From Trichodelitschia bisporula (Eukaryota), in NCBI GenBank assembly GCA_010356995.1, contig ML996710.1, forward strand, positions 92,455 to 156,454: a stretch of 64,000 bases of DNA. Direction: 5' to 3'. The position numbers were made by a program, and so were the translations under genes. Shown in pieces: positions 886 through 49,411 of this stretch (positions within the stretch are counted from its first letter, which is position 1; every line of letters begins with the position of its first letter). Under the pieces are notes generated by a model that worked only from the letters and a program-made list of their open reading frames with translations, ran no database searches and had not been told where the DNA came from.

Positions 886-2714
886 GTTTGCGGGTGGTTG
901 TGAGAGTTTGGTGGCGGTGGGGGGCATCTGGGTGGGTTGGTGAGCGGAGTCTCGGGAATGGGTGAGGGAGCGTGTGGGGATGTGGGGGAGAGAGTTGGTG
1001 AATGCGGTGGAGGAGGGAGTTTGTGGGCGGCGGAGGAGGGGGCGCTTGTTCCGGAAGCAAACTTACATGTACGGCGGCGGGCGGCCCGGAAATAATCCAG
1101 GTCCGGTATAGTCTGATGGTGGAGTTAGATGGTGGTGTTAAGGCTGATGTCGGTTGGGCTGTATGATGGATTCATAGAAGGGTAAGTGTTTGCCTCTCCG
1201 GCAAGTTCGAAGGCCGCCATGCTATAAGTTTGGTGTATGGTACTCGGCTCGGCCTAGTCTAGTGCGGAAGTGGAAATCATAGAAGGTAGGTCTCAAAATC
1301 GGCCTTGCTGTCCACGGGCCAACAGGACCTTCGGTATAGATGCGCCGGTGATGTTTATATCTGTAAGATCCAGCCGCCGCAGATTCCGGTGACTTGCTGA
1401 GCTTGACGTCCTCCGAGGCGGGGTTTCGGTCGGACTCCAAATGAACGGCAGACGAAGGCTGGTATATATCTAGAACGTTAGTAATTCCACGCTGTCAAAA
1501 ACGCAGGGCTCTTCCCCGCGTTTGTCATGGTATTCGCGCAGCTTTTTTATGAATTCCTCATATTCTGGCGTTTTCTCGATGGCTACGGATGGACCGGCCA
1601 CCGAGCTGCGGCGCGGAGGTATCGTAAATAAACGTATATATACTTAAGAATGTTGAGTAACGTAAGTTAGCTCCGGACAGCTAGGAAGTTTACAATCTGA
1701 GGGATGGTTGATGGTTTTGACGTTGCTGAAGGGTGTAGCGCATTCGGGCGCAAAATATGGATCTGCGGCCGTCGAATGTCGTAACCGTGGTTGTATATAG
1801 AGCGACTACGGCCGCCGCCGCCGCCGCAATTGCCGTTGAAGCCTCGATGATAGGCATTGCGGTCGCAACAATAGCCGAACTGGTTGTCACTACGATAATT
1901 AGTACTATTGGACGGAGAAGTTCCCCCTTACATCTCATATTCCTTATTACTGGAGAGGGAAAGCTCGGAGGAGTCGGAAGTTTGGTACCTGTATGGAGAT
2001 GTTCATACAGTACGTCTAGTACTGGCTAGGCTTATCCTTTAAACGAAAGCCGCCCTCACCTACGGCTAATTGACATTCATGGCCATCTCGAGCTCGTGGG
2101 GCCTGGGAAGCGTTAGGGTTTGCAGTGGCTTCTTCAAACCCTTTTATTTGGGCTTGTTCTGGGTCTAAAACTTCTGTACATTCTATATAAAGGGCCGGGA
2201 GAAAAGACAATTGAAAATTATTGAAGAAGGTCGAGGAAAATGGGGAAGGGGAGGGAAAAGTGGTGATGGAGGAGGAAATGTTAAAGGTTAACGATTAAAG
2301 AAGTGGTCAGGGAACTTGGTAAGAGGAATGGTTCACTGATTGAGGCCCCGCTTCGCTCGGCTTCAATTATTCTCCGGACTCCCGTGCTCCTTCCCCCTCT
2401 GTCGTCTGAGGGCTGGGTCAAATCTTCTCGAGTTGCAGTAACGTGATTGACCCCAAGTTGCAGTAACGTGACCGGCTCCCGAAGATGAAGATGAAGATTA
2501 CGATCATGATCAAAGGCGCCGGGATGGTTCGTCTGCATACTACCGTAAAGGTCGCCGAAAACCACCATATGTTGACCGAAAACCAATACTCGCCTTAGCA
2601 GATGGGTAGGTTAATGACCTCAACCTAAGTAGAAGCGCTCGGCTTTTACTTTAGGTCGGAGGTTCAACAACCTCCCACATCCCCTAGTATTAACACCGAG
2701 AGCACAACGCTGAG

Positions 2715-2990
2715 CGCAGTGGCCGGAGCAGTGGCCGGGGGCGGGAGGCAGGAGCCGGAGCCGGGAGCCAGGGCCTGGAGCCGAAGGCCGGAGCAGAAGT
2801 CGGGAGCAGGAGGCAGGAGCAGCGGCTGGAAGCCGAAGTCGGGAGCAGGAGTCGGGAGCAGGAGGCAGGAGCAGCGGCTGGAAGCCGAAGTCGGGAGCAG
2901 GAGGCTTGAACAGCAGGCCAGAGCTGTGGCCGGAGCTGTGGCCGGAGTAGTAGCCAGTGCCGTAACCGGAGCTGTGACCGAGAGCACGGC
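2715..2990. repeat. Degenerate GC-rich tandem repeats (GAAGCCGAAGTCGGGAGCAGGAGGCAGGAGCAGCGGCTG and GTGGCCGGAGCT units)
   Basis: Units visible directly several times in 2715-2990. Confidence 0.8.
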
Positions 2991-4457
2991 GCGGGGCCGA
3001 AGGCTGAGAGGTACTGTTTGTGAAGGAAGGTGGGTTTCCGCCGAGAGAATTATGGAACAGGTGATCGCCATCCATATAACACGGAGGGCCCTCAGACATT
3101 CTTGTCACACGCCTGAGAGTCCTTCCCGGTCTTTTTGAGCCTTCAAGCTTCCACAATACAGGGCTTATGAACAGGTACGACGTGCGGACACCAACCACCA
3201 TGGGGTCTTCTCCTCAGATCCACGATGGAATGGGGCGAGGGTCTAGTGAGCCTGCAATGCTGGAAGTATACGCCAGGGCCTAGATGTATTTACCCGACCT
3301 TCGGGGGCTTTGAGGAGCAGACATGGAGGGTGTAGCTATGGCACGGTATGTCAGCAGGCAGTGAGTTAGGCAAGTGAAAGTGTTCGAATTATTGAAGAGA
3401 GGGAAATGAAGTCCCCAGATCCACATATGGAAGTTATATAAAGAGGGCAATGGCTCGCCCCCTGATGCAAAGCCTTGCATCTCACACTGTGTAAATTGTG
3501 GATCTTCTATCGCAGACTCGGTTCCCAAAAGAACCCGTGCACTGGCGAAACATCATAGTCGCAGAGGCGAGGAAGCTGCGGTAGCATCGTACCTCACGAT
3601 ACGTGGTGTGCGAGCCGTACGAAGGACTCAAGAAACGTATACTGCTTTGGCGAAGGCCCATATCCTAACAAAAGATCAGCAAAACTGAAGGAAACGACAG
3701 GTGGTACACTCACAACTTGGAGTACCTTCTTGACGATCCGGACTTTGCGCAGCTTAACCTTGTATTTGCTGCTATGGCCGCCGTGCTTGATTTGGGACCG
3801 GGCCCAGAAGTCCGCTGGCCAGTAACTACATATGCAGTCTTGTTATAGTTGACGAGAGAAGGGGGGAAGTGCGCGGTAGTTGTAGCTGGTGGCTGTTATA
3901 TACCGCCCCAGAAGCGCCTCGATGAGGCGCGGCGGAGAGACTGAAGATCCGGGCAGGGATGTCCGGGCGGCGCCATTCATATGTTGCTCGAGCTCAGAGT
4001 GTTTGTGAGGACAGCGCAAATCGGTATATCGTTCGACAGTCTTGAATGGCGGGGCGGTTCGTAGGAGCGGCAATCCTCTTCCGGACTCAAAGAACTTCTC
4101 AATCTTGACATCGAGGCCAGCATCAGAAGCCAGGTTTGGAACGATGCAATCAATGGCAGAAGCTCACTAAGATGACAGTAGAGAAAGCGGCGCGGCGGTA
4201 TAAAAGAGGGTGACCTTCCCGAGCCACGTCGAGAGGCGTCGTGACCGGAGCTAGGACGCCGGGCTTTAGGATGGTCTTTGATGTGCCTACAGCACTGAGC
4301 TGAGGGTTTGGGACCGTATATACCTCGCCGGACCGTGGGGGGCTCGTTGAGGACATGGGGAGATTGACGCATATTTTTTTGGCCGAGCGGCGGCGGCTGG
4401 ATGATGCGCTTCAGAGCCATAGCAATGCGCTTGAAGATTGTTAAAATGAAGTGTGAA

Positions 4458-4579: not shown

Positions 4580-4599
4580 AAGATCATATATGGCTGCTA

Positions 4600-16500: not shown

Positions 16501-16620
16501 TTCAGTCCAACACAACCCCAGAACGACGAGCATGAACATATCGCCGTCGAGGAGGAGTGCTCTGGGATCGCCGACGAATGTGCTCTATCGGCGATGGGAT
16601 GAGTGTATGAACCGTCGTCC
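13549..16620 (+). mobile_element. Ty1/copia element C, forward part: 5' LTR 13549-13724, PBS 13725-13736, gag 13833-14520, protease, integrase
   Basis: TGTTGG...ACAACA then GGTTATGAGCCC; CFHCKK, WMLDTGATRH, HKRLGH...CDAC, RVHIDYWGP, QNGIAER, LRVFGCKAY motifs. Confidence 0.92.
15540..15753. mobile_element. 214-bp solo LTR inserted in the integrase of element C
   Basis: TGTTGG...CCGACA ends; TSD CAAAT on both sides. Confidence 0.92.
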
Positions 16621-17728
16621 ACGTAGATGGCAATGATCACTCCTTTCCTGAGTACGGCACAGGGGTCATAGTTTGACTGAACGAAACCTTGCTCCTTGAG
16701 GTACGTGGTGAGCGTCTCATTCCATTCCCCTGCTGACTGTTTAAGTCCGTATAGACTTAGGAGTATTTGGAGGTAGTCTCCTCCAAGGTCGTGTCCATCG
16801 ATGAGGTCAAATCCTTCCGCGGCCCTCATATATATCTCTTCCTGAAGAGGTGCTGCGAGATACGCATTGTCGACATCCGCTTGGTGTACGATGAGTCCTT
16901 GAAGTGCAGCCATTGCAAAAAGTGGCCGCAGCGTATCGTATCTGACCGTTGGCGAGTACGTTTTGTCGAAGTCAATTCCTTCCTGCTGCGAGAACCTTTG
17001 AGCGACGAGACTAGCCTTGTAGCTAGCGATCGAACCATCTTCGTTGTATTTGACCTTGAAGACCCCTTTGGAACCAACCGGTCTCCTCCCAACGGGTAGG
17101 CTGGTGCTTTTGAAGGTTACGCATTGGATGTGAGCTTGAAGCTCTCGGACTATCGCTTCGATCCAGTCTTTTCCGTGCACGGGGTCGGATATTGCTTCCT
17201 CGTAGGACGACGGTTCATACACTCATCCCATCGCCGATAGAGCACATTTGTCGGCGATCCCAGAGCACTCCTCCTCGATGGCGATATATGCATGCTCGTC
17301 GTTCTGGGGTTGTGTTGGACTGAATCTTCCTCGTTGATAATTTGCCGTTGAACGCCGAGGCCTGCCAGACTCCTCCTGTCTTGTATCCTCTCTTGCACTT
17401 CTTCGCTTGGTGTCTTCTGTCCGTAGGGTTGTCCCGTATTTACCCTGATGGTATCACGTTCGGAGTCCGAATCCGGCGTCGCCTTGCCCAACGCAGTAGA
17501 TGCTGGCTGTACGTCCAAGCCTCCGAAGCTGTCGTGCTTCCTGATATCTCTGTCGTTCGGTTCCGCGGCCCTTTCTGCTTCTACGAAAGTGGCCGAACTT
17601 GCCCTTTCGACCTTTCTTGTTGCGGGGTTGTAGATCTTCCAAATAGAGTCGGACTCGGTGTATCCCACGAAGATCCCCTTCCAGGCCTTATCATCAAATA
17701 TCCTCCTTTTTACGTCTGGCACGGGTAC
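16614..17728 (-). mobile_element. Element C inverted arm carrying N-terminal RT
   Basis: 17205-17728 is the reverse complement of ~16094-16620; spacer encodes EPSSYEEA...LVAQRFSQ...LYGLKQS...IYVDD. Confidence 0.9.
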
Positions 17729-17995
17729 CGTCCGAGGGTTCTCTTCGTGGAAACTAGCAGTGGCTGGTGTTCGAGCCAAAATCAATGTATCAATTGATCT
17801 CTGACTGACTAGCTCGACCTCTGAATGAGATCGGGAATGAGCGACTATATACACAACTTCTGACTTTCAGTATCTTCCATCGATCTGACCAATTTGTCAG
17901 GAAGAATACTCCAGATACTCAATTTGTCATCATAGAAGATTCTAGATCGTCATCCCGCAGTAGCTGGGTGTATACCGTCATTGCTCAGTCTGACA
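17729..17995 (-). mobile_element. LTR of copia family D (267 bp), no TSD
   Basis: Near-identical to 32901-33167 and 37769-38035. Confidence 0.9.
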
Positions 17996-18589
17996 GGTTT
18001 CCACGTCGAAGGCAGGGCCAGTAGCCGTGCAGTCTGACGTCGTCGTTTTGGAGCTTGCTGATCCGGTTATGCTACTCAGATCAGCGTCCGTATTCCACAA
18101 TCCTGACCTTGGATGTCAAAGAAATGTGGGGATATCACGTTCCTTGAATGATAATCACTTTATTGGCCACTGGCAGACCGTAAAGAGAAGAGATTTGAAT
18201 GATGGGTATTGATGAAAAGAAGAGGAAGAGGAAGAGGAAGAGGAGGAGGGAGAAGTAAAAAATGACATATATACCCCGTATCCCCGCTCTTCCCACGCCG
18301 AAGACTCAAATTCACTGGCAAGTCACACGCTCCGAGCCATAGATTCATACTGAGCTCCGCATCCGTACTGAAATCCGCCCCCGCAGTGAATTCAGCGGCC
18401 GGTGCGGAGACTCAACCCCGCGGCTGGACGGTGCGGTCCTGTGCGGGGTCCCGGGCCGGTTACTTGCCGACGAGTTATGAAGGCAATTGACTCATGCCCA
18501 GGAGGGCCGGTCAAACTCCTTTCCAAGGGAGATATGTGACCAATGGTTCAACACATGGTGAATCTTGCTGTGGAGCGGGGTTGAGGAAC

Positions 18590-18775
18590 TGTTGAACTAT
18601 GGCGGCAACCTGGGGTGGCTGGAGTGGAGCCAGGAGACAGGGGTCGTCTCCTGGCGAGGTATATAGTCCGCTCACTTCCCACTGCTAGTCAGTTAAGCAA
18701 CTCGTTCATGGAGAGACCTTCGGTCCAACTTGTGACGCAGTGATGTTTCCATTGATCACGCATCACCTTTCAACA
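18590..18775 (+). mobile_element. Solo LTR of copia family A (186 bp)
   Basis: TGTTGAA...TTCAACA; TSD GGAAC; homologous to the split LTR at 4458-4919. Confidence 0.92.
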
Positions 18776-19078
18776 GGAACAAAGGGCAGGCCATTTGGTT
18801 TGTGGGCCTCATGGCAATATTTACGGACATGTGTCAAGGCCGACTAAATTACGAAGCCGGATGGGCCGCGGGGAGCACACCAGAGTAAATTGGAGTTTTG
18901 TTCTCAGTAGATACAGTGAGTATATATGGGAGCTTTGCCCTTGAAAGGCCGACAATTCCTTATCTCGACGCCTCTGCCTCGGAATTCGTGTTTCGGCGTT
19001 CTAATCGCCCCTGTCACTTTTTATATAGTCAGTACGCCGCTCTGTGGTGGAGACCTTCGTCCGGGCATAGTGAAACAC

Positions 19079-19345
19079 TGTTAGCCGGATTTCCATTTGA
19101 TACAGCCTTCTGATATTGTAAGCTCCAGTATCACTTCGCGCTCGGTATCTTTGTTGCCGGTATCCGTTAACGCTCGGGATTGCTTACTTCCGTTGTCTTG
19201 TTTCATCATATCTTCGGCTCGACGCTACTCCTGTTCCATATTTCCTATATAGTGCGAGTTGCCCACATGGTACACTCTACAGTTCAGTCTACGTCAATCA
19301 ACAGAAACCTTTGTTTCATCTGTTCTCAGCTTCTCCAGTCCAACA
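19079..19345. mobile_element. Solo LTR family F (267 bp)
   Basis: TGTTAG...CCAACA; TSD AACAC; second copy at 30239-30505. Confidence 0.92.
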
Positions 19346-19729
19346 AACACCCTTTCACAAGTTATGCATGCTGTGGTTCTCTGAAGATAATGAGCAAACT
19401 CCAGAAGCGGCAAGATGTCCACAAAAAATAGGAATATGAGGCAAATTTGCTCATTCCTATGCCCATTGAAGCTCTTGAGTCAAAAGTCGTGGCTCATCGA
19501 GTTGTGGCAAGCTCATTGTCGCCAAAGATCATCAAGCTGCCTCGCAGTAACACAAGAGACAGATATGCACAGCATCACGGTGAGAAGGGATTTGGCAATA
19601 AAAACGAGCAAGCATTCAGAAACATCATGATTGATTTTTAGTTATATACGTCAGTGGTTCCCACCTCCCGCGCCAGTCGTCGGAATCGCCGCTGACTTCC
19701 ACGGCCTGTTGGATTTGCAGAAGTTGCAT

Positions 19730-20790
19730 TTGCGGTTGCGTAGGAGACTTTGGTGCCCGGCAAAATGTTGCAGAGTATATAGGTTGTCAAGGAGGTGATC
19801 AGACAACTTGTGCTGGGCGGTATCCTGAATGATGCGCTGGAAGTCTTCCGGCTCAATGTATCCATCGTGATCCTTGCCCAGAGGTTTGAATGCCTGACGG
19901 ATGCACTCTCCTTCGGGCATGTTCCTTACCCAGCACATCGAAGAGTGTCCTTCAGCAGAGCCGGATTTATATAACCAGAAAAAGTTGTCTGACCATTCTC
20001 CACAATCCATGACTTTAGACCAGCCATGTCCTGGACGCGCAAGAGTTAGCAAGCAACGCAAAAGAGCAAATAGAGATGGACGAACCCCGCAAAATCAATC
20101 GTGCCAGTTCCCTTGTGATCGAATAGGCGAAAGGCAATCTAGTACTCGGCATCGGCCTTTTCGAGCAGATTCGTCAATGCGACCCAAGTCCGCCCTGTTG
20201 TATATAATTTCAGCGCCGTGGTCAAAAGTCTGAACAAACTGCTTGCCATCGATCGTGCCAGTTCCCTTACGCTCGAATAATCGAAAGGCGATCTCGTACT
20301 CGGTATCGACCTTTTCGAGTAGATTCGGGAATGAACCCCAGTCCGCACCCCGACTTCCAGCAGGCGCAGGTTACACTAACCTACTCTCCGACACGCGGGA
20401 TCTGAGCATTCAAAGCCCAGATTGCTGGCATGTTGGGGTTCCGACCGCCGCTGCTGGGGTCATCGGGCCTCGTGAAATCGAATAACAATGCTTTCTCCGC
20501 GCCGCTCTTGCCACCGTTCCAGCCTTGGTGAGCCCACCCATGGTTGTTTTCACTGCACCAACCATGCAGGAGATGATGGCGACAGCGTGCATCCATATCT
20601 GGTCGTGTTCGATGAGCACGACCAGACTCTGCCACTTGGCGAAGAACATTGCCGCTCATCGTTGCCCCGGCGGCATTCGAGCCGCCGTCAAGGGTGTGCT
20701 GCCATGAGGAGTTAAGAAACTTGGCAAAGTCGGCAAGAGAGAGGCGACCTGACAGCTTGTCGATGAGGCAAAGTGGAAAAGGTGCGGCCG
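19730..20790 (-). pseudogene. AGC1: Scrambled fragments of the mitochondrial aspartate/glutamate carrier (Aralar/Agc1) EF-hand region
   Basis: ECIRQAF...DGYIEPEDFQRIIQDTAQHKLSDHLLDNL, two copies of NLLEKxDxEYxIAFRLF, and LFHFA/SGRLSLADFAKFL; stops, frameshifts, pieces out of order. Confidence 0.8.
20395..20530 (-). pseudogene. TOS1/PGA52-like (DUF2401) glycosidase fragment
   Basis: KALLFDFTRPDD...NPNMPAIWALNAQIPR resembles the family motif MPAIWxLNAxIPR. Confidence 0.65.
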
Positions 20791-22008
20791 TGGTATATAG
20801 CACTGGTGGGATTTGTCCATGGAATTGGTGAAGATGTGCAGCGTGAAGACAACTTTGAGATGGTCGATGCGGGCTCTGTGAACCGCCGGCTATGAGCATC
20901 GGGATTTTTATGGTGGAGATGAAGACGTTTGAATAATTCGATGAAGTCGTCGGCGCGTACGATCCACGCTTGAGACTAGCGGCAATGCGCCAGCGCCTGA
21001 CTGAGTTAGGGACGGAAAGCGCTCGGGAGGGCAGGTAAACTAACCATAGCTGAGGGACCAGTACTTGTACCCTCAATGCCATGACCCAGATCAACAGAAT
21101 GCTGGACGTGATTGATGGCTGTCGCCGCAATGACGGCAGAGTATATACAGCCCCGAGCATCCGCACACACGCCGGACCCCGGCAGACCTCCCGCCCCCCG
21201 AACCCAAACACCGCCACAACTCTCCACAAATACAAGGGGATCCATCGAGTATAAAATCGAAAAATGAAACGCCCATGCAATATAGACAAAGCTGGAGGAG
21301 TGAAGGTGGCAGATGCATGTGGCTACTGTGCTGACTAAGAGAGAGGCTGGGGAGAATGCCGATGGCGCAGGGGAAGATGATGAAGCCATGGCTCATGAGG
21401 GAGAAAGTGAGCACGCCACTCACCCATCAACCTCACTCCGTACGCAAAATACTCGTGATGGATCATGCTAGTTCAAAGTGCCCTTGCTCACGAACGAGAG
21501 ATGCAGCCTGAGACGTCAGAGGAAGAAATGGCTGGGGTGCGCACACTCACCATCACGGGTCATTCCCGGTTTGTGAGGAATGCCAGCTGGAATGATCACA
21601 ACGGTGGCACCGGTGGGGCACCACGGAGACCAGTGCTGGGGGAATCGCAGCCCTGGGGCTGCATATATACAAACCGGGAGTCAAACGGCAAGTCCGCACA
21701 AAATTCTCGCCCAGCCATGGGGAATGATGTCCTGGAGTAAAAGCACATTTTTCACGGCAGCAACGTTGATGAAATGATGATTTACTCAGCTTGAGCGGTG
21801 TTGAGGGATGAAAGGCTGACGCAAGTTGAGCGATGTTGAGAGATGCTGAGCGGTGCCGTTGGAGCTGATATTGAGGTGATGGCGATTGGCGTTGATTGAT
21901 GATCTGGGAACGTGAGCAATGCAGACACGAAGAGTGATGCACATACCGATGACATTTGAAAAATGCGTGAATGGCTCGTCTTAGCTTCTCCCTTCCGAAG
22001 AAGAGATA

Positions 22009-22035
22009 CTAGACCCCAGCACCGCGATGAGGTGC
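22009..22035 (-). mobile_element. Helitron-like 3' terminus (hairpin + CTAG|T)
   Basis: Minus strand GCACC-TCATCGC-GGTGC TGGGGT CTAG T; similar end at 41658-41683. Confidence 0.45.
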
Positions 22036-25000
22036 GAGCCGTCGCTAGGGAAATGAAATGAGAAACCTGTGTTGCTATTTACATGATACTCAGAATCCTT
22101 CGTCTCCTCAACAGTGCCCTCAACCCCGCCAGCCGCACCCTATGAACAAGATCGCATATTGACTGCGCTTGATCTTATGCTGCTGCAGTTAGCACTATCA
22201 GGCAGTGAGAGGGGCGCGACTCACGTAATCCTCCCCAGAGTTAAACTCCGTTTTCTGTTACGGAATGCACCACATAAACAGTAACATCAATCGCAATGAA
22301 GAGCAACACACTGTACGGAGAGGGTGCACGTAGAGAATGGTGAGGGCGCGGTGGGGCAGTGTTCGAGCTGAAGGTGACTCTCAGCTCTGTGTTGTCGGCC
22401 TGGGCCATTGCCGCCGCAGTGCACCGGCAATCTGGGCTGGGAGGGAAAGAGGATCGGAAGTGCAGGTCGATGTGTGAGTGATGTGAAAGAGTTTGGAGCA
22501 AGCAGTCAGAGGAATTTATACCTACGTCGCGAAAGTTCTGTCCAACGAAGTCCTTCGGAGATGCCGAGTGTTGAGAAGGAAGACTGACGAAGGCCTTGAG
22601 TGATGCGGAGTGATGAAGTTGAAGATTGAAGAAGGCTTGCAAAGTGAGGAAGGAAGTGATTGTGAAGGACCCCTGCACTTCACGTCCATGAATAACGACC
22701 GCGAGTCCGAGGAATCTGGGACACCCTCCCCTTCCCAGCAGCTGCTTTGCCACCCGGTCCGCCTGCACAAAGCTGTACCCGCGTCCCAGCGACTCAGTCT
22801 CTGACTGAGTGCTGTAGAACGACGGGCCCAGCGCTATGCAAGGCCAGGATGTAGATGTCATGATGATGATGATGGGGAATGTCATGAGGTAATGAGGAAG
22901 AAATGATGATGAAGATTATTAGTGAAGATACCATGACCACGAACGCCCCGACCGCGCAACGAGCGTGCGACACGCAGCATCCGAGCTGAAAGTGCCGCCA
23001 GACGCGCACGAAGGCGCGCACCCAGCGACGGACTCCTCGTCCCCCTCGACATTGGTGAAGTGGAACGCGGCGTCAAAGTGAACGAGGAGCCCTTTGTAGT
23101 CAAGGCCCTTGCCCGCCAGCTCAGCCTCCCGTCCAATAAAGCGCTCCTTGCGAGAGCAGTTTTGAGATGTGAATTGAGTGCAACTCTCAGTCCACATCTG
23201 CTTGCCCACTGTCAGCACCCTGAGGCCAGTCTTCATGGACAAGGAGCTTCATACCTGTGATGAAGAAAAGTCGCAGTGGCTGAGGTCGCGCATGTGTGTT
23301 TTGATGCCACTCTCTGACCACTTCAACCACGGTTTCGAGGTGACAGACTGAGGGGCACACGGGCTTGTGAGTGGACAGCAGCAGGGAAAATGAGAGACAA
23401 AAACATACCGATGAACTTGAGAGCATGCAGCAGATGGAGAGTCAGAGGCGATATAGTCAAAGCCAGGTTTGGTCATCCAAAGCCTAGCTCGACATCTGAA
23501 GCCCAACAGCTTGAAGGATGAGGATGAGGCATGACAAAGAAGGACGGAAGACAACGAGTGATGTTTGAGTGATGGAAAAGAAGCCCGAGAACTGCTGAGG
23601 GACTTGAGAGTCCAGAGAGGTGACTTTGATATAGCAAAGAATGATTGAGAAGAATGAATGGAGTTTGAGTGAAGCTTGAGTGATGGGTGAGAGATGAATG
23701 AATTATAAAGAGTGATGGCAGAGTGATTAAGTTTGATGGATGAAGGATGAAAGGTGGTCTTGGGAGAAGAGGTTGTGGTTGTTGGAAGTTGGGAGAAAAT
23801 GAAAAAAGGAAAGTGGCTTTTATGCGAGTCCCGGAGGGACAAACGGGCCGACACCGCCGACGTCGCAGTGCCAGAGGAAGACATTCGCGTCATCGGTGCC
23901 CCTAGGGAGGAAGGAATGGGAGTCATCGGTGCCCGAGAGGAGGAAGGAGGGAAGGGGTTCGCTACGGAGGGGCCAATCCCCGTGGGGCTCCCCCGCCTGG
24001 GGGGATGACCCGTGGGGGGGTGACAGGTCCCATTGGCCATCGTGAAGCGGGGTAGACCCCACGCGCCGTTTTCAGAAAGTGCCATCGCGTTTTCCGCGAG
24101 GGGGAGGGACTTCAGAGGCCAGTGGAGATTTTGAGGGCGGGGGGTCGTGATGATGGGGGCGCCGGCATTGCTATTGAGAGACCACAAGACGGCGGCATGG
24201 CGGGCAAAATGTCTTCAGAATACTTATGTCCTTCGGTGGGTAACTATGAAAAGAATGCCTGACTTTGAAATTGGGCAGTGAGCTCATATGGAACTGGAAT
24301 TGCGGTGATTCGTGATCTGCGATCCATGAAGCCGACGTGCCTCCCAGCGTGCTTTTGTGCGCGCAGATCCTCCGGAGAGTAGCAAGAGTCTTCCACTGGA
24401 AATTGAGGAGCACCAAAGTAGTAATAAAGCAGCTCGTCCTTCTCTCTCTCTCGCATCTTCCCTTTCTCGACCCGGTGAGTTCCATACTGTGAGCGTCAAG
24501 AAGTGTCGCGATCCTGCGGCCCGATCAAAGTTCCACACCACATGGTGTTGCAGATTCTCAGCGCACATCATCTCAGACTCATACTCTCAACTCTTCTAGC
24601 ATTGCCTAACGGTTGCAGGAAGTCTCACGAATTTGTTTAGGTTGATATTAAAAAGTTTCAAAGTGCCAGAAGGGACTATGGTAAGCTGCACCGCAATTCC
24701 CGTCTCCCAGCCCACGCCGTACCACTCCATGGCGAGCTCACAGCATTCGGCTGCGCTGAGAACACCGAAGAAGAGAGTGGGAAAGGAGTTTTTTGTGGTA
24801 ACCGCGCGACTTCGAGCACAAATGCAGAGGACACAGGCAAATCAATGAGCATCGAGCGTGGGAAAGGTGGTCAGAAGCGACCACTGGCCGGCGGAGGCAG
24901 CAAAGAGCCCTAGTGAACGCGACCCGAGGATGTGGCAGTGAAGGGTCTTTGCCTCGAAGACCGAGGTGCCTTTATCCCCGCAAAAGGCTGAGGACGCTCG

Positions 25001-26229
25001 ATATTGGTGAGGGGCACACGACATTGGTGCAGAGCACACGCAACTCAAGAGCATGGGCATACGGAAACACCATGTGGGCTTAACAGAATACTACGAGAGA
25101 GGAAGAGAAACCAAATTACTATTGTACCACATTCACTCCCACATCCACACGAGAGCGTGTCCCCACTGCGGCCCCGTCGGCATGGCAATCAGGAAAGAAG
25201 GGTTGTCCGCGTTGTTGAAGTTGAAGTAGTTGTAAAGGAGGTGCGTTATGATATTTTTGTTGACGTGGTGAAGCTTTGCGATACCATTGGCAGGTAGAGA
25301 TGTCCCAGTGGTCCTAACGGCTCCACCGCAGGGACAAGAGTAGCCCTGTTGGTGGAGGGCTCCACCATTCCCTCCACTGAAAGTGTTTTGCGGACCCGAG
25401 CGCAAGGAGCGATTCGCCGACAGCCTGAGGAGCCGCTCAAGGATATACGGCGGCAGAGGACGGTGTGCCTGCCCTTTGTCCTTGTTCTCCTTGTAAAGAC
25501 GAGATGTCGAGTTCAGCCTGGGAAAAGGGCCTCGTAATTAGCAACAACCCATTACTATATAGCTTCAAGACTTACACCCGACGGAGGATGAGGTCCTCGT
25601 TAAGAAGAAGCCAGTATGACTGCATCGTGACAGTTTGCGGTTTGCAGTGTTGGATGAGGGTGGTGAGTGAGGGAATGGGAACAGAAGGGAGAGAGGTCAG
25701 CGTTTGAGCCCGTAAGGGGGACTCATACATAGAGTTATCGTGAAAACCCCGCACGCTCAACCTCACCACATCAGGCCTGATAGCCACCACTCCACGTCCT
25801 AAAAAGCAAACCCCTTCTGAGTTAGCATTCTGAACCTAGAATAATGTGACCACTTCGCTGACAAGCACATGAGTAACTCCGCACCTTGCCTAGGACGGGA
25901 CTGGTCGCTACCAGTTCATTTTCGTGCTGCAGTGGACCTCCCGTTGCTCCACCTGAACCAGTCTCGCATACACAGTGTGCATGTAAGCCCTCACAAAGCC
26001 TTCTCGTACGCTTTGCTAACAGTCATGGCTTCTGGTATTCCCAGCTCCCGCCGAAGCTCCTCCTTTTCCCCCCTTTGCGCCGTCGCCGCGTTCCCTTCAA
26101 TGCCGCCGAGCACGTCAGAAGCCAGCCTCGCGAGCGACCCCACAAGATGTCAACACAAGCTTTCATTGGCTTAGAACGGGTCCACGCTACCCCGCACAAG
26201 AAACAATCTGGGGAAGTGGGCCGGAGCGA

Positions 26230-26800
26230 CTGGGCAGGGGCTAGATGCATGAGTTAAACGGCTCCAGCAACGCCCGAGCACCGGCGCGGCAAGGACACTC
26301 GACACGTCAGGACGCACCTTCAGTACAATAAATTGAACCCTGCACGTCGGTGAATAAAGGATGTTGTGTTAAATGGCCATGCGAAGTGGAGCGAGTGGGC
26401 CCGAGCAAGATAGCCCCTGCAACGTCGGAGCTCCGGGGCGGCAAGCACACTCCGGACATCGGGATGTACTTTAGCAAAAAGAATTCAGCCCTGGACTTCG
26501 AAGGATAAAGGAAGCCATGTTTAATGGCCATGCGAGGCGAGCGAGTGGGACCCAGCTGGATGCAGAGGTTAGATGGCCCCCCGCAACGCCGGAGTACCGA
26601 CGTGGCAAGGACACTCGGGACGTCAGGATGCACCTTCAGCACAAAGGCCATACGAGGCAGAGCGAGTACGCGGCAGCTACATGCAGGAGATATACTGCGC
26701 CTGCAACGCGGGAGCACCGGGGCGGCACGGACATTAGGGACGTCGGGATGTACTTTCAGTACACAGAATTGAACCTTGAATTTTGAAGAATAAAGGAAGC
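26230..26800. repeat. Degenerate tandem repeat, ~120-165-bp period, ~4 copies
   Basis: Recurrent GCAACG-CGGAG...GGCAAGGACACTCGGGACGTCAGGATG-ACxTTCAG and ATAAAGGA...AATGGCCATGCGA blocks. Confidence 0.75.
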
Positions 26801-30130: not shown

Positions 30131-30238
30131 CGCACTCTCTCTGCCACCTCAAGATTGTTCCAGTGGTATACTGAGCTTGACTGAAGAGGAGAGCTGTGGG
30201 CCACACAGAGTCCCAGACTGGGGGGTATTAGCCATTGT

Positions 30239-40463: not shown

Positions 40464-41657
40464 CCTACGCTCTGTCCGCACGCGCACCCGCTTCGAGTGG
40501 AGGAGGCCATCGGCCATGCTTATATACTGCGGGAACTCTTCATCGATAACGTCGTCATAGAACCTGGCCGGAGCGGGCGGTATGCAGGCTTCGCCGCGGC
40601 GGGCGTTCTCGGAGGCGCGCTCGTCGGTAGAGGCCAGCTCGCGCGACTTATAGTTGCGGGTTACACACTGCTCACTCTCTCCTCAATCTGCTCTTCCACT
40701 CCAAACACTTCACCATCTGTCGGAAGGCTTGATCTAGTAAGTAGGGTGGACTGTAGGTGGGCTAGCCGGACTTCAAGTTGATCTTAGAATTTACAAGGCA
40801 TGTGTTTTTCACCAACATGGCTCTCACAAAGACTTCCCTGTTTCGGCAGCGTCACAACAGGCGATAAGGATCAATGTGTTGCCCAAGGCGGCCACGATCA
40901 AGTGATTGACGCAGTCTCAACCATTCTAATTGTGCTCCAGCAGCCAGTGCAGAAAATTTGGCAGACTGATACCCAGTACCTCCCGCGCCGCCGCTCTTCT
41001 TCCCCGCTCGAGCCCGCGCGCAGCGGCGTGTCGGCTGGCGTCGCTCCCACCCTACAGCGCTCAGGTCTCCCTTCGCCGGCTAGCGAGGCATGGCGGCTGC
41101 AGGTGCCAAAAGACTCTAGATCGAGATTCAAGTCCCATGCGCAAACCATGCCCCTTCGTCAATATACGCGGAATCCCGCCGATCTGGATCGGACGCGCCC
41201 CCGTCGTAATTATCACTTTGCCACTTTATTTGCGGGAAGCACGACTAAAACTACGAGGCACGGCGCGTCCGCCGGCGCAGGATGCCTTCATGAAATTGAT
41301 GACATCTCTTGCTCAGATTTAAGGGAATACACCGGTACCACTCCCGTAGAAAGCCCCTGTGCCTAAGAGGGCGGCTCTAAGTGCCGCGAATGTCTGACAC
41401 AATCAAGCCTTCTGGATCTTCTGTTGGAACCCAGTCATGAGGTCTCACATTCATCCATCACCAGCCTTGTCAACAACAGCCTATACGCGCGCCCACGAGC
41501 ACGTACCCTACTCACCATTGCTCTTATTGAAGTATTCAGCCGGTCATTCCTAGTCCACCATTTTGAAACGCCACAACAGTGAACGCGACATGCAACACTC
41601 CAACTCGCCGCGGCGGAGCCTCATTCAACTGCGGTGCCCCGCCTTGCACGTGATACA

Positions 41658-41683
41658 CTAGACCCCGCAGATGGCTTGTCCGC
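41658..41683 (-). mobile_element. Second Helitron-like 3' terminus
   Basis: Minus strand GCGGA-CAAGCCA-TCTGC GGGGT CTAG T. Confidence 0.35.
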
Positions 41684-43789
41684 CTCACTTCAGCCTCGTA
41701 GGTGGCCTATGGACCACACGCACGCGCGCCCGAGTCCAAATCACGATGTCACTGCTTTAACGCACAGCAGGCGTACAGCAGCGCAGGTCTCTATCAATAT
41801 GTTTTAGTAGTGCTTTTCCGTGCCCCGCGGTGCCTCATGATGCGCCAGCAAAATCGTGAAACACGCCTAGCCTGGTTAGGCTCCCGCAAGCCTAATTAAG
41901 CTCCCGCACGGCTCGGGTCGATTGGGCTGAATCCGCCACCTTAACCCCCGCATACGCAGCAACTCCGCTATGCCCCGCTCCACCACTGCCACGTTACAAA
42001 TCGGCCGGCTATGGCTTACGAATGAAAAACAAATGACGTGGTAGCGAGGTGGTAATAGTTAGAGAGACAGCGATACAATCGTTATGCCTTCGGAAGCTCC
42101 TCCGCACCTTGCTCTTTGACCGACCGGTACAGCGTCGCATACCTGAATCATAGCATCATCACCATAGTAAGTCCAGCCCTATAATGTCGGGAATACCCGT
42201 TCTGATACCCATCGCCGTAGCCACTCGCAAAGCCACGGTGGCAGAAGATGTTCAGAGATGGAGTGTTTAGAAGCGCCTGTTGGAACACTTTGTAACGGGG
42301 AACTGCTGTCCGCTCTTTTCAAGTGTGAGCGACAAGTACTTCAGATTGTGAAAACTATGCGACAACTTACCCAATATATACGACTGGACTGGAGCTTGTT
42401 GATGATGAAATCCATCACATCATTGAAGACAGCTTCGTACTTTGACTCATTCAAGAGCTGAGCAACGAAGTCACTCGCGCGACGTCAGTTTGTCCGGGCG
42501 TCATGACAAGCAACTTACCGGCCAATTTTGCCGTCTATAATGCCCCTCAGAGTTTTCGCCCTCCGGAAGGCAGTCACTCTCTCAATGATGAGACGAGCAG
42601 TCTTCCAGAGCGTGTGCCACTATATATTGAAGCGGCCGAATGGCATGCCGATGAACACGGTCGCGGCTGTGCTTGATTAATCTGAATGCAAACGGAGGCA
42701 AAGTGGGGTTGAGTCACGAACCTCTCGGCGTAGGACCTTGGAATTTGGTCCTCCGAGCCTAGGGCTTTTTCTCTGCCTGTTATCGCTTTTACCCGTGGCC
42801 CATGTCAAATACGCTCCCGTTAAAACTTCAGTGCATGCTTCCGAAAGTCGCGGGAAGAAGTATGTAATGAGATGAATGATGAGCTGCCCTGTTGTGGACA
42901 AATGGTGATTGAGAGCTTGAATGATGTTTCCATACTCGTTGCGGATCATAGGGCGTCCGCAGCAACACTTGCATGCAAAGCGGTATATAGAGAAGTATAT
43001 GATGAGGTGTGTTGATGTTGAGGAAGAGGAAGAAGAAGAGGAAGATGTTGGGGATTTGGAAGAACTTTTACCTCCCGCGGTGAAGGGAGAAAGTGCTGGA
43101 GCAGTGAGTCACTTTTCGGGTTACAAAAAGGGCAGTGACGGCCCAAAGCACGTGCTGGTAGGTACCCCGCGCGGCCGCCTGATTCTGACGGTCATCAGCT
43201 TCACTGGGCTGTGGTGGGGGCCAGGCGTTGGCTGCCCCTCGACCGCCATAACAGGCAAGTACGGGAGGCTATCTATCCACTTGCCTCAGCCTAATGGTGT
43301 TGTGTACCTCTTTTGCATTGTGTCCTTGTGAATTTGAGAAGCTGCCGTAACAGGAGTCGTGGATGGAAGACATTTTTCTGCGGCCATGGAGATATATTCC
43401 CCCGAACAATGGGACCAAAAGCTATTGTTCATCAAGACTACAAGAACTGATTCTGTGAATTAAAGAGAGCCGGTGCTCAGTGACGACTGGCGTGAATATA
43501 TACGAGATTCCACGAAAGTGGAATGGGTCATAGGAGTTGAGTGGAATTCTACCGGCAGGCCGAAGGGACTGTACCCCTTATTTTGAAGGCCTTCATAAAA
43601 GCTGCCAGTAGCCACGAAAAGTTCCATTGAACTCTACGCCCTGAAACGTTGTGCGGTGAGCGGTGCACCATATCAGGGTGAAATCATATGGTAGAGTAAG
43701 AATCACAAAATTCTCCTGATTTTCCCCGGCTGTTGCATCATGATATGTATGTTCAATTTGTGTCCGATGCGGTTTCCGAAGGTCCATAC

Positions 43790-45075
43790 AGAGAGCTAGT
43801 TAAGCTAGCGGCTAGATACAAGGTAGTTATGCCAGGCCAAACCCCCCTGAAGGGACGGAGCCCTGCTTTTGGAGGAAACCCCTTTTTGATGACCTGGTAG
43901 CGCTCGGTCGAGCTCCGGGCGCCAGCCATAGGTCTTCAGTCGAGCTTGAGGTTGTTATTTAATAGAAGAGAAACTACCTAACGCTCTTGGCTTCGCAGCC
44001 ACACTTGTTCACTTATCTCCATGTGATCCGTTCCTGTGTAGGTCCAAAGGGGGTGGGTGCCGATCCCCTACGCCTTGACGCATCAGACGTTATAGGCGTA
44101 CCGGTTAGGTGTTAGGTCTAGGCCGGGTCGTCGCCGGTGGCTTCGCCGGGGCAGGCGACGATGGAGGTAGAGGAGAGGGACGTGTTAAACTTGCTCCCTC
44201 GTTTGCTCTAGGTGGAGGTAGAAAGCTCCGGAGGTCGCCCTGACTAGGCATTGGTCGGCTCTGTACGAGCGGTGGTCGTCTTCGATCGCGCTTTAGGGTC
44301 TGGGGGAAGGCAAGCCTTGTGGTAGTGTTGGGGCCGGGGGTCGCCCTCGGTAATGCCGGGACCGGGACGGTCTCCGGTTGTCCGGCTCCGTCTGTGACGG
44401 TGACTTTCTGGGGCTGTGGACTCACCTTTCGTGAAGCCTGGCGTTTGCTAGATGAGAGGGAGCGCTGGTGATCTACACGTGCCGTCTGCTATATGGCAGA
44501 TAGGGTGGGCGTTAAGGTGATTAATACCCTGGCTCTACTCCGGCTACGCATTAGACGGACGGACCGTCGAAGGTACGAGTGTAGCTCCGGCGGTCGAGTG
44601 CTCGGTTGCTGAGCTAGGGCCGGCGGAGTCGACGTCTATCTCGTTGGGGTCGGTGGCGGAGGAAGCGTCGGGCGCGCTCCGGTCTAGGGCCTTGCCCTTC
44701 TCCGCTTGCTTTGCTTCCGCCTTCTTCTTCCTGTTGTGGGTGACCTTGATCTATACGTTTGGGGGGGGTCCGCGGCCCGGCCCGGTGTCGGCGTTGCGTC
44801 GATTGATTTCTGGTCGGTCTCTATAGCTGGTCGGGTTCTTGAGGCGGTACATCGTCTTAAGGCATTTGGCGCGCAGCTCTGCGAGCTGCTTGTCGTAGTT
44901 CGTCCACTCGGGACAAGCCGTACGCTGGTCTGCGTTACGGGTATGCGTCCTCGCCAGCGCTGGCTGGGTGCAGACAGCGCACTTCATCCGGCGTGCGTCT
45001 CCCTTGTGGGGACAGGCGGAGGCCCGGTGCTCACGCACGCAGTAACCGCAGTGCGTCTCTCGTCGACATGTGTTG
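43790..45075 (-). mobile_element. Degenerate Tad1-like LINE fragment (ORF1 zinc knuckles), TpA-enriched
   Basis: CGYCVREHRASACP...KCAVC...H...CP tandem knuckles; many TAG/TAA stops and TpA dinucleotides. Confidence 0.55.
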
Positions 45076-46366
45076 CATCGTGATATGCAGAAAGTCGAGT
45101 CACTCGGACGGAAATTCAAAGGATGGAAGTTTCTTGCAACTCAACAGGATAGTCCGGGAGCATCAGGTTGATGCTCTCAACCTGAAAGCGCATATATGTC
45201 TGAGAAACGCCAGTCAAACCCTTTGACATGAAGAAGTTGATGGTTCGACATCTAAGGATGCATTCCGCTCCATTCTATATATCTAACATTCCCAGTGGGC
45301 CAGCGAAGAGGCATCCCTCCCCATCAATCCATTTCGCCACGCCACAGACCCGCTTTGCTGAGGAATTTGGACATGCTGCATTGCTACGGCCGTTGACGGC
45401 GGCGGCGGGACAGCCGCCGTTGAAGTAGTAGACGCAGACGTCGAGCGTGAGAGGACCGCGCCGCATGAAGAAACGGATGGGTTTTGGCTTACGGAGGCTG
45501 TTCGGATTGATGATCCGAACCAGCCATTGAGTCTGAGTTACTGTCTCACCGGAATTGATGGCATGTTTCCGTCTTCATACGCGGCTTCGTCGTTAGCAGT
45601 GACCGTCTCATGATCCACCGTGTTTTCCGAGGCGTCGTGAGAACACTGGTCCGTGGTACGAAGGCTGTCGCCGGCACCATCACTGATAGATGCAAGCCTG
45701 CCAGAGGAGAATATTCGGGCTTTCATAGAGGGAACGCCTTCTGAGGCTGAATGTCAGGAGTGGGGTCGCTGTTAGGGGACGGCGTTGCCAGCTGAGAATG
45801 GAACGAAGAATGAACAGAGAGGATGTGTTGACTGGTGTTTTCAAAGGTGGCCACTGCTGATGTTGGGCTTGGGTTCCCGCACAGTGTCGGGGTCAATTAT
45901 GCGGATCGGAACATTTGCCTGAGTGACGGTGTGGTTGGAATGGTTGCCGGCCTCATCGTCCATGACCTGGTCCTCGGTAGTAGCCGCTTCGTGGCCCAGC
46001 GGGTGGTCCTGAGAAGAAGTTGGACCGCGTCACACTTGTCAGTTTCGGTAATGCCAGAGTCCGAACTTTTGAAAGGTGTTGTATCTGTCATGGTCTGAGC
46101 ACGCCAGGCCCTGCCAGGGCGTTGTTGAACCATACTACGTGATGCAGCCGCTCGGTGCCAAGCCCAGGGCACTGCCACCCCACACCTGCATTTCAGTTCT
46201 AGACCTTCGACATTTCCTCTTCATAGCAGTATTTTCTGTCATACCCGCATTCAGTGCATTCGATGTCCCAGACGTTGCCCGTGACATTATCGGAGAAGCC
46301 ACAGAGTCAGAACTATTTAAAGGTGTTTATCAGAGAAGGCGCAGAGCCCGAACTCTTGAAAAGTGT

Positions 46367-46613
46367 TGTCATGGGCGCACAAATCACTGGTTGCACAGCA
46401 TTGGTTGTGGAATAACATTCATTGAAAGCTTGAAGAACTATGTGAGGGTTTCGCGTGTTAATGTGGAGTGTGGGGGAGCTGGGGGTGCTAGCTCACAGCC
46501 AGCGCCAAGTCCTCACCCCTGCAAGTCCAGTCGGGCTGGAATTGCAGGGATCAGGCATCAAGCTTACCGAGTCACGTGACTTGACATGGGAGAGATGGTA
46601 TCCTCCCATGACA
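46367..46613. mobile_element. Solo LTR family G (247 bp)
   Basis: Perfect 9-bp terminal inverted repeat TGTCATGGG...CCCATGACA; TSD AGTGT. Confidence 0.92.
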
Positions 46614-48662
46614 AGTGTTATCAGAGAAATCGCAGTGCTTAGCGGGAGTTGAGATGGAGGTCTCCGAAAGACTCATCATGGAGGAGCGATGGGCTGTCGC
46701 CGGTATATAAGTGGCTCGCAGTCGTGCAACCACAGTGTATAAAGGCCGGCGAAGGTGTGAATTGAGTGAAGGAGAAGGACTTGTTGTATTTGAGAGGATC
46801 CAGCTGGATGCGCGTCTTGACGCTGCGCCGGTTAGCAGGCGTGCGGCTGCATCATTGCGGGTAACTTACACATCGACTGGGGTGAGTGCGCCATGGGTGA
46901 CGGAGCAGAACGGCGGAGCAGAAGATTTGAGTTCGCAAGGCTGTACTCTGACCGTACCTTCTTGATGTACTCATCCGGATCTTCTGTCTTGTCTTCTCCG
47001 CGGAATTCGCTGCAAATGACCCGCCAGGTGGGCACTATATACTGCACACACTGCCCCCGGCCTCGGTCACAGTGTTTTCGGAATGGTTGCCAGCCTCGTC
47101 GTCCATGATCTGGTCCTCGGTAGTAGCCGCTTCGTGGCCTGGCAGGTTGGTCGAGGCGTTGTCAGGAAGCTGGTCAACGTATTGCGGCTTGACGACGGCC
47201 TTGAGGTTGTCCTCCAGGACTTTTGTGAAGTAGTCCGCAAATATATCAGTCTTGCTGAATCCACACTCCGTGATTGAGCCAGCCTCGAAGGATGCAAACG
47301 CGAAGACGAAGTCGGACATCGAGACCGTTGGCAGTACAGTTCCGCCTATTTCATTGAGTACCTCCGTCAGATTCTCGCACGATGCCAGGCGCCGCAGGCC
47401 GATTGTCAGGTGGCGTGAGCAGCGGAAGCAGCAGAGCAGTAGGACCACCTTCCAGAGGGATGTTTGGCCGCTCAAAACTCGTTCCAGCACGGAGACGCCC
47501 TGGCGAAACTCGGTTGGACGGACTCAAGTGCTGTATCCTGGACGACGGCGGCGGGCAGGTTACGCTGTCTCTTAGGGAGATTCGTCTGAGCGCCTTGGGA
47601 GTACGATGGAGTACGATGGAGTACGATGCTCGCGCGGAGGAATGTGATTGTGCTTTTTCACAATCGTCATCCTCCGGGGAGCGGTGCTGAATGCCCTTTT
47701 GTCAGCCGCGTCGATGCAGCACTGCTGTTCCTCATCGGACTCGGGGCTGAGTGCGGATGGCTTCCACATGTGCGTCCGGCCGTATATAGGTACCACGGGC
47801 TTGCGCGCGGTCTCTCGTCTCTGGCATGGAAGGTGAGGCTCGAATGCGCGGGTCCGACGATGTTCTCAGTGCGCAATGAAGGATGAGGGTGAGGATTCGA
47901 GTGGCTCAATTGCCGTGGAGGCTGATCACTCAATATATAGTCTTCCTCTGGGAAGGTATATACACTTTGCCCTTCGGAAAGTCCTCCACGCCCTTCTGCT
48001 TGACCCCAATGAAGTCCGACTTCCAGTTCCAAAGGCACACTCCTGCGTATGTTGCAACAGGAGGAATTTCGAAGAATTTGCATGTCTCTAGAAATGGAAC
48101 GGAAAGAGACTTCAGTGGCCCGATCGCCTGTGACGAACGTCTGAGCATCACCCGCCACACCAAGTTTGTTGAAAGCCATAAGTCCAAACACCGTTTCGTA
48201 GATTCCGAAACGCGTGGTGGAGTAGGCGTGTTGGCGAATGAGTGAGGCGGAGAGCTAAGTGGGTCAGTGGAGGGTTCATGCGTTTTAGGGGAAGGGGAGG
48301 GGAGGAGGGACGTACGCCGCACGAGATACACGTTATACCCGTTAGTGTCCCAGGCCTCGCTCTACCGGTGCAAAGGGCGGGCTGAAGTTGCCACCGTGTG
48401 TCAGGGGCCCACGGCAATCACTGTGACCAGAGTGTGGGTTTAACAAGCATTGATTTTACGGGGAAGAAGGTGGGTAGTATAGGAGCGGTGAATATATCTG
48501 GGGCTTGCTTAGCGAGGAGCCAAGCCTTCCCATGGGCGGGAACTTGTGCCAAGCCCCACCACCTCCTACCATCTCTGCTCCTTCAGGCTTACATCCATGA
48601 CACCGTGTCAGGTGACCGGATATAAGGGGGAAACGATGAAGACAGAAGAATGGCGCTTCATC

Positions 48663-49411
48663 AAGTTGGCCATCTTCTTGCTGTCTTCGGGCGAGAAGTG
48701 GTACTTCTCCCGCAGCACATCCTGTAGAGCTCACGGCCGCAGGCAGCTGATAAACAAGGGTAAGTATGAGAAAGAGCGTGGGTGGAAGGGCAGTGTGCAA
48801 GTTTGAGGAAACGGAAGTGGAACTTACTGGGTTGGAGATCCGCTTGATGTCACCGTAGATGGCGAATTGGTCCGCCGTAAGCGTGCCGGCCATGAAGAGA
48901 CGCGCGCCGATGTTGGCGTCCGGAGAGTACTGTGCCGCCGCCTTGGCGAGATCACGGACGACGGAGGCATTTGGGTTGAGCAGATCTCAAACGTTAGGAG
49001 GATCATTTGCAAGAGCACGCACACATACCAACGCGGGACAGGCCCGGCTTGCGAAGACGTCGGGACACCCTCGAACGCCGCCGCTTTTTCAAGGATCTCA
49101 TTGGTGAGCTCGGCCCATGTCTCAAAGGCAAGCTCCTCGCTGAGAACGAGCGTGTTTTCGCAGTCGAAGATGATTGTCGAAACCATCCGGGACTGCTATA
49201 GTGACGTTGGAGTCGTTGGCGGTCCCTGTGGAGGAGCAGTCGCCATCGCAGCAGTCGGAGACCATGGTCACAGAAGAGTGGCCGGGTCGGTTAGAATCTT
49301 GGACACGATGCGGGCGCCGTGGATCGGGGGGTTTGAGTAGAGCGGACGGACGTGGACCTTGATCTGCGAATCCACGTGCGCCTTCTCCTCGATGAAGTGA
49401 CGCACAGCGAA
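48663..49411 (-). pseudogene. Mosaic of gene fragments: aspartate aminotransferase (49280-49411), HAD hydrolase (49084-49186), malate dehydrogenase with introns (48822-49070), SRPK/Sky1 kinase (48663-48721)
   Basis: VDSQIKVHVRPLYSNPPIHGARI; IIFDCENTLVLSEELAFE; GVP..RKPGLSR/DLLNPNASVVRDLAKA..ISNP; DVLREKYHFSPED. Confidence 0.78.

Follow-up and report, generated by a model that had tools for sequence, protein, structure and literature searches.

The 64,000-nucleotide stretch of Trichodelitschia bisporula DNA analyzed here (hereafter the window; C24:92455-156454 in an assembly of 25.8 Mb and 44 contigs) contains a patchwork of gene fragments that is most likely a transcribed, non-coding scar of gene capture. 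This one locus comprises more than 45 co-oriented pieces of at least 25 genes, has no element ends, and draws on donors that recur at other loci. The patchwork extends from approximately 1.3 to 49.4 kb of the window and is thus larger than an earlier sequence-only reading had described. We located 25 donors, spread over 15 contigs, whereas the Tom5 and HAD pieces were recognized via Pfam only; these donor lists are lower bounds. BLASTN against the donor set gave 44 matches in the real window and 0 in the reversed window, which served as a control. The focal segment (19730-21430) is flanked by nested LTR-retrotransposon remains. Donors could be assigned to 1021 of its 1701 bases, and the remaining ~40% had no donor match; for 19928-20029, a protein search returned only the stretch itself, and Pfam scans of 82 and 46 frames added few donors. 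The pieces in and beside this segment, in the order in which they are read on the minus strand, are as follows.

23273..23328, minus strand: C2H2 zinc-finger piece, presumably REI1-like, with 8 of 8 differences at third positions
23031..23156, minus strand: mannitol-1-phosphate dehydrogenase piece, 77% to C3:151521-151646
22313..23040, minus strand: four shuffled pieces of the orphan gene L077, including its TATA box (22472-22521), 70-86%
22143..22239, minus strand: AGC1 exon end, whole intron (22180-22224), and exon 2 start, 80% to C11:335045-335141
21715..21756, minus strand: piece of an AMPK1_CBM-domain gene, 90% to C11:535225-535266
21508..21677, minus strand: malate dehydrogenase (MDH) exon with a whole retained intron (21508-21550)
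21403..21505, minus strand: last codons, stop codon, and 3'UTR of AGC1, 73-76% to C11:333094-333194
21297..21389, minus strand: L077 piece (ORF start), a weak match, 65% to C2:1156082-1156174, E 3e-4
20809..20891, minus strand: indoleamine 2,3-dioxygenase (IDO) piece, 73% to C16:359577-359659, Pfam PF01231
20623..20782, minus strand: late EF/linker piece of AGC1 (SGRLSL), exon-2 residues ~228-280, 83% to C11:334247-334407
20539..20631, minus strand: glycosyltransferase family 2 (GT2) piece, 78-80% to C20:440329-440421, donor assigned by Pfam
20343..20503, minus strand: TOS1/YJL171C-like piece, 80% to C9:661820-661983
20225..20344, minus strand: early AGC1 piece, copy 2, residues ~28-66, 80% to C11:334885-335004
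20077..20191, minus strand: early AGC1 piece, copy 1, residues ~28-64, with one stop codon, 85% to C11:334891-335004
19733..19911, minus strand: AGC1 piece, exon-2 residues ~111-171 (EF-hand region), with a 2-nt deletion, 87% to C11:334571-334751

The sequence-only reading had described 5 of these pieces, 4 from AGC1 and one TOS1-like, and BLASTN alignment recovered all 5 at the positions and in the order that it gave, 80-87% identical to single intact donors. It did not include the GT2, IDO, and L077 pieces or the AGC1 stop codon with its 3'UTR, nor, just outside the segment, the AGC1 exon 1/intron piece. The TOS1-like piece matches Pfam PF10287 (YJL171C_Tos1_C, E 4.6e-10) and overlaps AGC1 copy 2 by 2 nt; the GT2 piece has a 9-nt overlap with the AGC1 piece upstream. 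No second full copy of AGC1 was found beside the intact donor on C11, which has both EF-hand and Mito_carr domains and shows up to 73% identity to fungal AGC1 proteins. Five AGC1 segments fall within 2.5 kb. The earlier argument against in-place decay of an AGC1 paralog is borne out: collinearity with the parent gene is missing, and decay in place is excluded because the AGC1 order is scrambled (among 10 pairs of distinct segments, 5 break the donor order) and pieces of four other genes lie in between.

That one donor was captured more than once, as had also been proposed, holds at the level of the genome, with five co-oriented, out-of-order AGC1 pieces (86-89%) on C12:286.8-288.9 kb and a single one (90%) at C9:517.4 kb, but the duplicated early piece is better read otherwise. 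Its two copies are indeed diverged (16 of 93 sites differ). Comparison with the donor revealed that (i) both begin at the identical donor base and so have the same left breakpoint; (ii) copy 1 retains two bases of the upstream TOS1 junction; and (iii) 7 silent differences from the donor are common to both, beside 4 and 12 private differences (5/3/8 by codon position). Because of the same start base, the TOS1 junction bases, and the common silent differences, the pair probably arose by local duplication, which is the simpler reading of the alignment; two captures from one template are a less likely alternative.

The same patchwork includes two further sub-mosaics.

1317..4316, minus strand: left sub-mosaic, with IDO, MPD, L099, ARID-like, and other pieces
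41073..49402, minus strand: right sub-mosaic, with MPD, GT2, L099, L077, MIR1-like, kinase, ABC ATPase, IDO, DIC1-like, MDH, AAT, Tom5, and HAD pieces

Pieces of IDO, MPD, GT2, MDH, L077, and L099 are each present in two or three sub-mosaics, and those of the neighboring stretch at 48.7-49.6 kb were confirmed. The patchwork locus is single-copy, and its longest gene-derived piece is 288 bases. Elsewhere in the 256 kb of C24 examined, the patchwork donors gave a single match, which is L117-like. The most often captured donor, L077 (C2:1155947-1157185), is an orphan 370-aa ORF with a TATA box, for which no homologs were found in a search among proteins of 203-648 aa; its copies are silent-biased, and its pieces were found on six further contigs. 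An assembly artefact is ruled out because one DNA-run contig, which may be the assembly's own source, covers 19350-26100 unchanged, and contigs of putative RNA runs from another study traverse the piece junctions from 19657 to 21903.

Several other elements lie in or near the patchwork. Remains of nested copia-type retrotransposons, together with solo LTRs from several families (90-98% identity), occupy window positions 4450-19350 and 29900-38040 and show no RIP-like GC loss. Also within the patchwork region, and minus-strand like the pieces, is an intact ORF of 442 aa (27939-29267) that is single-copy and begins with hydrophobic residues; it has no Pfam match, and we take it to be glycoside-hydrolase-like. 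An Argonaute gene (ArgoN, ArgoL1, ArgoL2, and Piwi domains) is located at C24:87218-~90100, ~2.3 kb left of the window and ~3.7 kb from the leftmost patchwork piece. A 134-aa frame at 25136-25537 (minus strand) belongs to a family with no Pfam match and no usable Atlas match; 3 matches were obtained among 1.84 billion; two of the three carry the label Trichodelitschia bisporula, and the third is repetitive and therefore of doubtful value. Remnants of this family, on C11, C19, C12, C13, C8, C3, C4, and C16, are often close to L077 pieces, differ mainly at third positions, and have no ends in common. The degenerate locus on C4 (~1293950-1296250) combines a piece of the family with L077-like pieces and a Helitron_like_N remnant, all on one strand.

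The polarity of the patchwork is strict. In the main BLAST set, every one of the 44 pieces reads in the sense direction on minus (41 judged by frame and 3 by the gene's strand). The same holds for the AAT, Tom5, and HAD pieces and for the 3'UTR piece of L086. The tally leaves out multi-copy repeats, L117, which has no frame, and L106, which is plus-sense. The last of these, the one orientation exception, is a donor represented in a 217-base tandem array beyond the right end (50933-51513, within window 50797-51513), the units of which correspond to the 3' terminus of a HODM-like gene on C14. Complete introns are kept in 6 of 6 cases across the patchwork, no piece with its intron removed was seen among those examined, and the L077 TATA box and 3'UTRs were captured too. 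Since introns and the TATA box are retained, the sequence excludes mature mRNA as the template and places capture at the DNA or unspliced level. Of 11 tight junctions, 3 show clear microhomology (AGC1 to GT2, MDH to MIR1-like, and ABC ATPase to L077), and the others are blunt, 2-nt, or filled; over all 11, microhomology was not above that of shifted registers (P 0.17 and 0.08). The reading frame is maintained at 7 of 18 junctions (P 0.39) and at 6 of the 10 tight ones (P 0.08). When TATA, branch-point, and donor-site motifs were counted by strand, only the branch-point-like motif leaned to the minus strand, in 2 of 3 stretches.

The locus appears to be transcribed. Contigs of two runs of one sample (X3 and X4), not on record as RNA, were treated as putative RNA because they lack GT-AG introns that are kept in DNA runs. 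They match the region at 99% or more and skip eight minus-strand introns, of which seven are GT-AG and one is GC-AG. No X3/X4 contig covers 23870-26100 or 19350-19575, which does not mean that these parts are silent.

19657-22041 (nearly continuous), 22391-22760, and 22922-23780, minus strand: spliced transcript cover in separate contig blocks, with 8 introns
20997..21044, minus strand: GT-AG intron spliced in RNA-run contigs, donor not found
20195..20246, minus strand: GC-AG intron that joins AGC1 copy 2 to copy 1, joint in one X3 contig
20031..20085, minus strand: spliced GT-AG intron with its 5' site from AGC1 exon sequence, joint in X3 and X4; its 3' part has no donor match

Two of the spliced introns derive from donors, those of AGC1 (22180-22224) and MDH (21508-21550), and the remaining ones rely on cryptic splice sites. 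Starting from ATG, the spliced RNA has no ORF longer than 243 aa, and that one is mostly off-frame text. A functional chimeric protein is ruled out by this off-frame ORF, by the junction frames (7/18), and by changes at invariant residues. What covers the focal segment is, as judged from the contigs, a spliced minus-strand RNA without a coherent protein.

The divergence of the pieces from their donors is concentrated at silent sites. Over 36 pieces (1069 codons), 169 of 422 four-fold sites differ (40%; 0.57 corrected), compared with 101 of 1069 second positions (9.4%; 0.10 corrected). This ratio of 5.7:1 is about three times the ~2:1 that we would predict for a neutral copy of a constrained gene (P~1e-27 against twice the second-position rate). 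In 6 triplets, selected from 14 to limit the reuse of copies, the private changes of single copies are distributed 23/20/50 over codon positions 1/2/3 (P 4e-5); the three dropped L077 triplets from the window were mixed, one of them with donor-only changes of 7/7/7. At 72 sites compared between the AGC1 copies of the window and of C12, 0 donor differences are in common and the private ones (6 and 9) are mostly silent, which argues against a donor that is merely fast. Within introns, 39 of 150 interior sites differ (26%), a lower share than at four-fold sites (P 0.002), so a reading with divergent templates needs constrained introns. The third/second ratio of the left sub-mosaic, where frames are partly uncertain, is 1.3 (little or no silent excess), and the AGC1 piece on C9 has changes of 3/3/3 by codon position and no silent excess. 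At the protein level, the changes resemble decay: of the 29 altered residues in AGC1, 20 are absent from all 48 homologs, and 6 stop codons were observed versus 8.4 simulated.

Three sources of the silent excess were examined and rejected. RIP or GC drift would be directional, and none was seen (67 C-to-T and 67 T-to-C differences at third positions); GC skew at donor gene ends was not supported, with no early C gain or late G gain (1 of 6 tests at P 0.03, uncorrected); and no shift of codon preference was found (125 vs 154, P 0.09). Templates from divergent alleles or orthologs have, in our judgment, an even chance of being the source. Former functional cargo and a rate difference are each unlikely, to an equal degree, and some other cause is improbable.

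Our preferred account, held tentatively and at slightly under an even chance, is that fragments were captured serially, by template switching that preserved polarity, from genes transcribed in a divergent lineage, and that duplication and decay followed. A DNA end, either a break or a rolling-circle intermediate, would copy 30-300 bases of one gene, release, and re-prime on another, through many rounds, keeping throughout to one strand with respect to transcription. Such constant polarity is expected if the templates are opened by transcription, as a displaced strand or an unspliced RNA:DNA hybrid. A few genes would be revisited, leaving several out-of-order pieces of one donor near each other, and the joins would be closed blunt, by short filler, or by microhomology. 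Local duplications (the early AGC1 pair), retrotransposon insertions, and neutral decay of ~0.1 changes per site would have come afterwards, and the captured promoters and splice sites would now yield spliced RNA without a coherent protein. The templates may have been alleles or orthologs of lineages already separated from the ancestor of today's donors, through introgression or deep ancestral variation. The pieces with their order and polarity, the introns, the TATA box, the splicing, the silent-site excess, and the recurrence of donors are observed. Within this account we infer the copying enzyme, the role of transcription, and the source of the templates; no such enzyme or end structure was found at the patchwork, which counts against it.

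The sequence-only reading had pointed to components of the malate-aspartate shuttle, and the coincidence is real: AGC1, MDH, and a mitochondrial-type AAT (49271-49402) are all present. The patchwork donors further include MIR1- and DIC1-like carriers and Tom5. Physical clustering of the donors, which it had suggested checking, is absent. Under uniform sampling, drawing 3 of 6 shuttle genes in 27 draws has P~3e-7, with assumed gene numbers and a post hoc category; if shuttle genes are sampled 30-100-fold more often, P is 0.01-0.2. Expression-weighted capture, a candidate, would suffice for the excess. Many donors, such as IDO, GT2, WD40, and deubiquitinase, are not obviously abundant transcripts and count against transcription-linked capture.

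That the patchwork is instead the remnant of a very large non-autonomous Helitron, or of nested Helitrons, with stepwise capture of gene fragments, seems unlikely. Helitrons capture promoters, UTRs, exons, and introns (PMC4224331, available text), as the introns, TATA box, and 3'UTRs here would require, and do so stepwise (PMC3288121, available text). The Helitron_like_N remnant at C4:1296.0 kb scores 31.8 bits against a cut-off of 28.9, and its locus has two ~72-base segments in common with window 22949-23019 and 25133-25205, in matching orientation. A hairpin plus CTRR scan of the window yielded 2 candidates on the minus and 5 on the plus strand, which is chance level, one of them (at 21633) inside the patchwork, and no 5' end was located; fungal Helitron ends are often non-canonical, according to the accessible part of PMC5148889, and the scan would miss those. 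Against such an origin, the locus is single-copy without amplification, nine related loci align only across the ORF core and have no termini in common, and one short Rep remnant, which may itself be captured scrap, and one PIF1 match on another contig were found genome-wide, with no intact RepHel. Moreover, maize elements carry 0-12 fragments in the accessible part of PMC3288121, compared with at least 25 donors here, and the silent excess would be left unexplained.

Still less probable is a history in which functional, co-oriented duplicates of entire genes were initially carried under selection and then broken up by tandem duplication and random loss, a process that would shuffle the order and keep the strand. 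Functional cargo accounts for the silent-biased private changes and for pieces ranging from a TATA box to 3'UTRs, and the intact 442-aa gene within the region is also on the minus strand. The near-tiling of L077 and IDO pieces in their donors fits as well (donor-side adjacency of 1594/1601, 1707/1716, and 2092/2094 for L077 and 1584/1579 for IDO, where the pieces at 20809-20891 and 48016-48099 adjoin each other). This history needs at least 25 unlinked genes to have been co-oriented beforehand and separate functional AGC1 copies at three loci, but no collinear relic longer than the largest piece is left, and just 7 of 18 junctions are in frame.

Two further explanations are improbable, to the same degree. 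A LINE or LTR reverse transcriptase jumping among unspliced cellular RNAs, with integration of the chimeric cDNA, would inherently yield co-orientation and reuse of a small template pool; LTR elements abound around the locus, and two- and three-template jumps are known in a fungus (PMC2104539, available text). The retention of 6 of 6 introns and the captured TATA box speak against it, as do the lack of any visible poly(A) at the 3' end of the focal segment and the absence of a LINE-type reverse transcriptase motif from the 256 kb of C24 scanned; by reading, no retroelement 3' part or flanking direct repeats were seen, although the ends of the patchwork are undefined, so that target duplications are not identifiable. 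Alternatively, filler of random orientation may have accumulated at a fragile transcribed site, antisense pieces being purged because they would silence essential genes, and the silent excess would reflect faster silent sites in donors. The putative RNA contigs, the Argonaute gene near the left end, and the 7 donor-only silent changes of the early AGC1 copies are in its favor. It requires ~45 successive filtering events with no escape, and the private changes of the copies are silent-biased, with no directional C or G gain by gene position in the donors, no codon-preference shift, and no GC or RIP bias.

Maize Helitron elements reportedly show a same-orientation bias. Gene-fragment capture by Helitrons and Pack-TIR elements is a general likeness to the patchwork in the available portions of the literature (PMC3288121, PMC4224331, PMC8277862, PMC5861414, PMC13317346). 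It is well known in plants and bats and reported to be rare in fungi, where Helitrons rarely capture host genes (PMC4289320, PMC5148889, accessible text). As far as the accessible text of PMC3288121 and PMC4224331 extends, maize and bat Helitrons resemble the patchwork in that unlinked-gene pieces with introns, promoters, and UTRs are captured at the DNA level and give chimeric transcripts. By contrast, the patchwork has no ends and no amplification, has at least 25 donors with several shuffled pieces per donor, and shows a silent excess. Pack-MULE/Pack-TIR and gap-filling template-switch capture, in the parts of PMC8277862 and PMC5861414 available, switches templates at short microhomology (median 2 bp), as may also be the case for the patchwork, and its products, like the patchwork, have mixed blunt and filler joins, are single-copy, and are often transcribed. 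No TIRs surround the cargo here (inverted pairs in 17000-24000 reach at most 27 nt, at 70%, and a window self-BLAST gave no flanking pair), and more than 45 pieces with strict polarity exceed what those portions describe. The LINE retro-chimeras of Magnaporthe, another filamentous fungus, are co-oriented fusions of different transcripts, many of them transcribed like the patchwork; they consist of two or three RNA parts, including a LINE or SINE, with flanking direct repeats (PMC2104539, accessible text), whereas the patchwork is built from dozens of pieces of host genes, introns included, and shows no retroelement portion where they join. Templated insertions at double-strand breaks (bioRxiv 10.1101/2022.09.30.509517, available portion) are likewise copies of distant loci, some with multiple donors, and are reportedly linked to transcription, but were described in human cells and on a small scale.

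The locus stands out for its scale, for a strict polarity that comes without any element, and for a silent-site pattern that is so far unexplained. A literature search of mostly open-access main texts found no such patchworks in this fungus and no comparable fungal case. Because there are many pieces and recurring donors, rules of capture (strand, expression, junctions, and donor choice) become statistically testable in one small genome. If the templates came from divergent lineages, such patchworks are a record of past introgression, and ages estimated by comparing a captured fragment with the present gene would be misleading. A highly improbable extension is a recurring transcription-coupled route that stores coding-strand snippets of other lineages in dedicated transcribed loci, an allele archive whose spliced sense RNAs would feed a small-RNA pathway marking or regulating the donors; the source lineages may be mates, hybrids, or neighbors, the alleles extinct or unsampled, and one locus lies beside the Argonaute gene.

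Two repeats and one outlying locus complete the description. A ~265-base multi-copy element is present in two copies of opposite orientation (window 40199-40464 and 46367-46613), and ~140-base degenerate tandem repeats with 71-80% identity occupy 26224-26801. At C9:~516.2-517.5 kb, the AGC1 piece adjoins two short frames, which we take to be LTR-retroelement RNase H.
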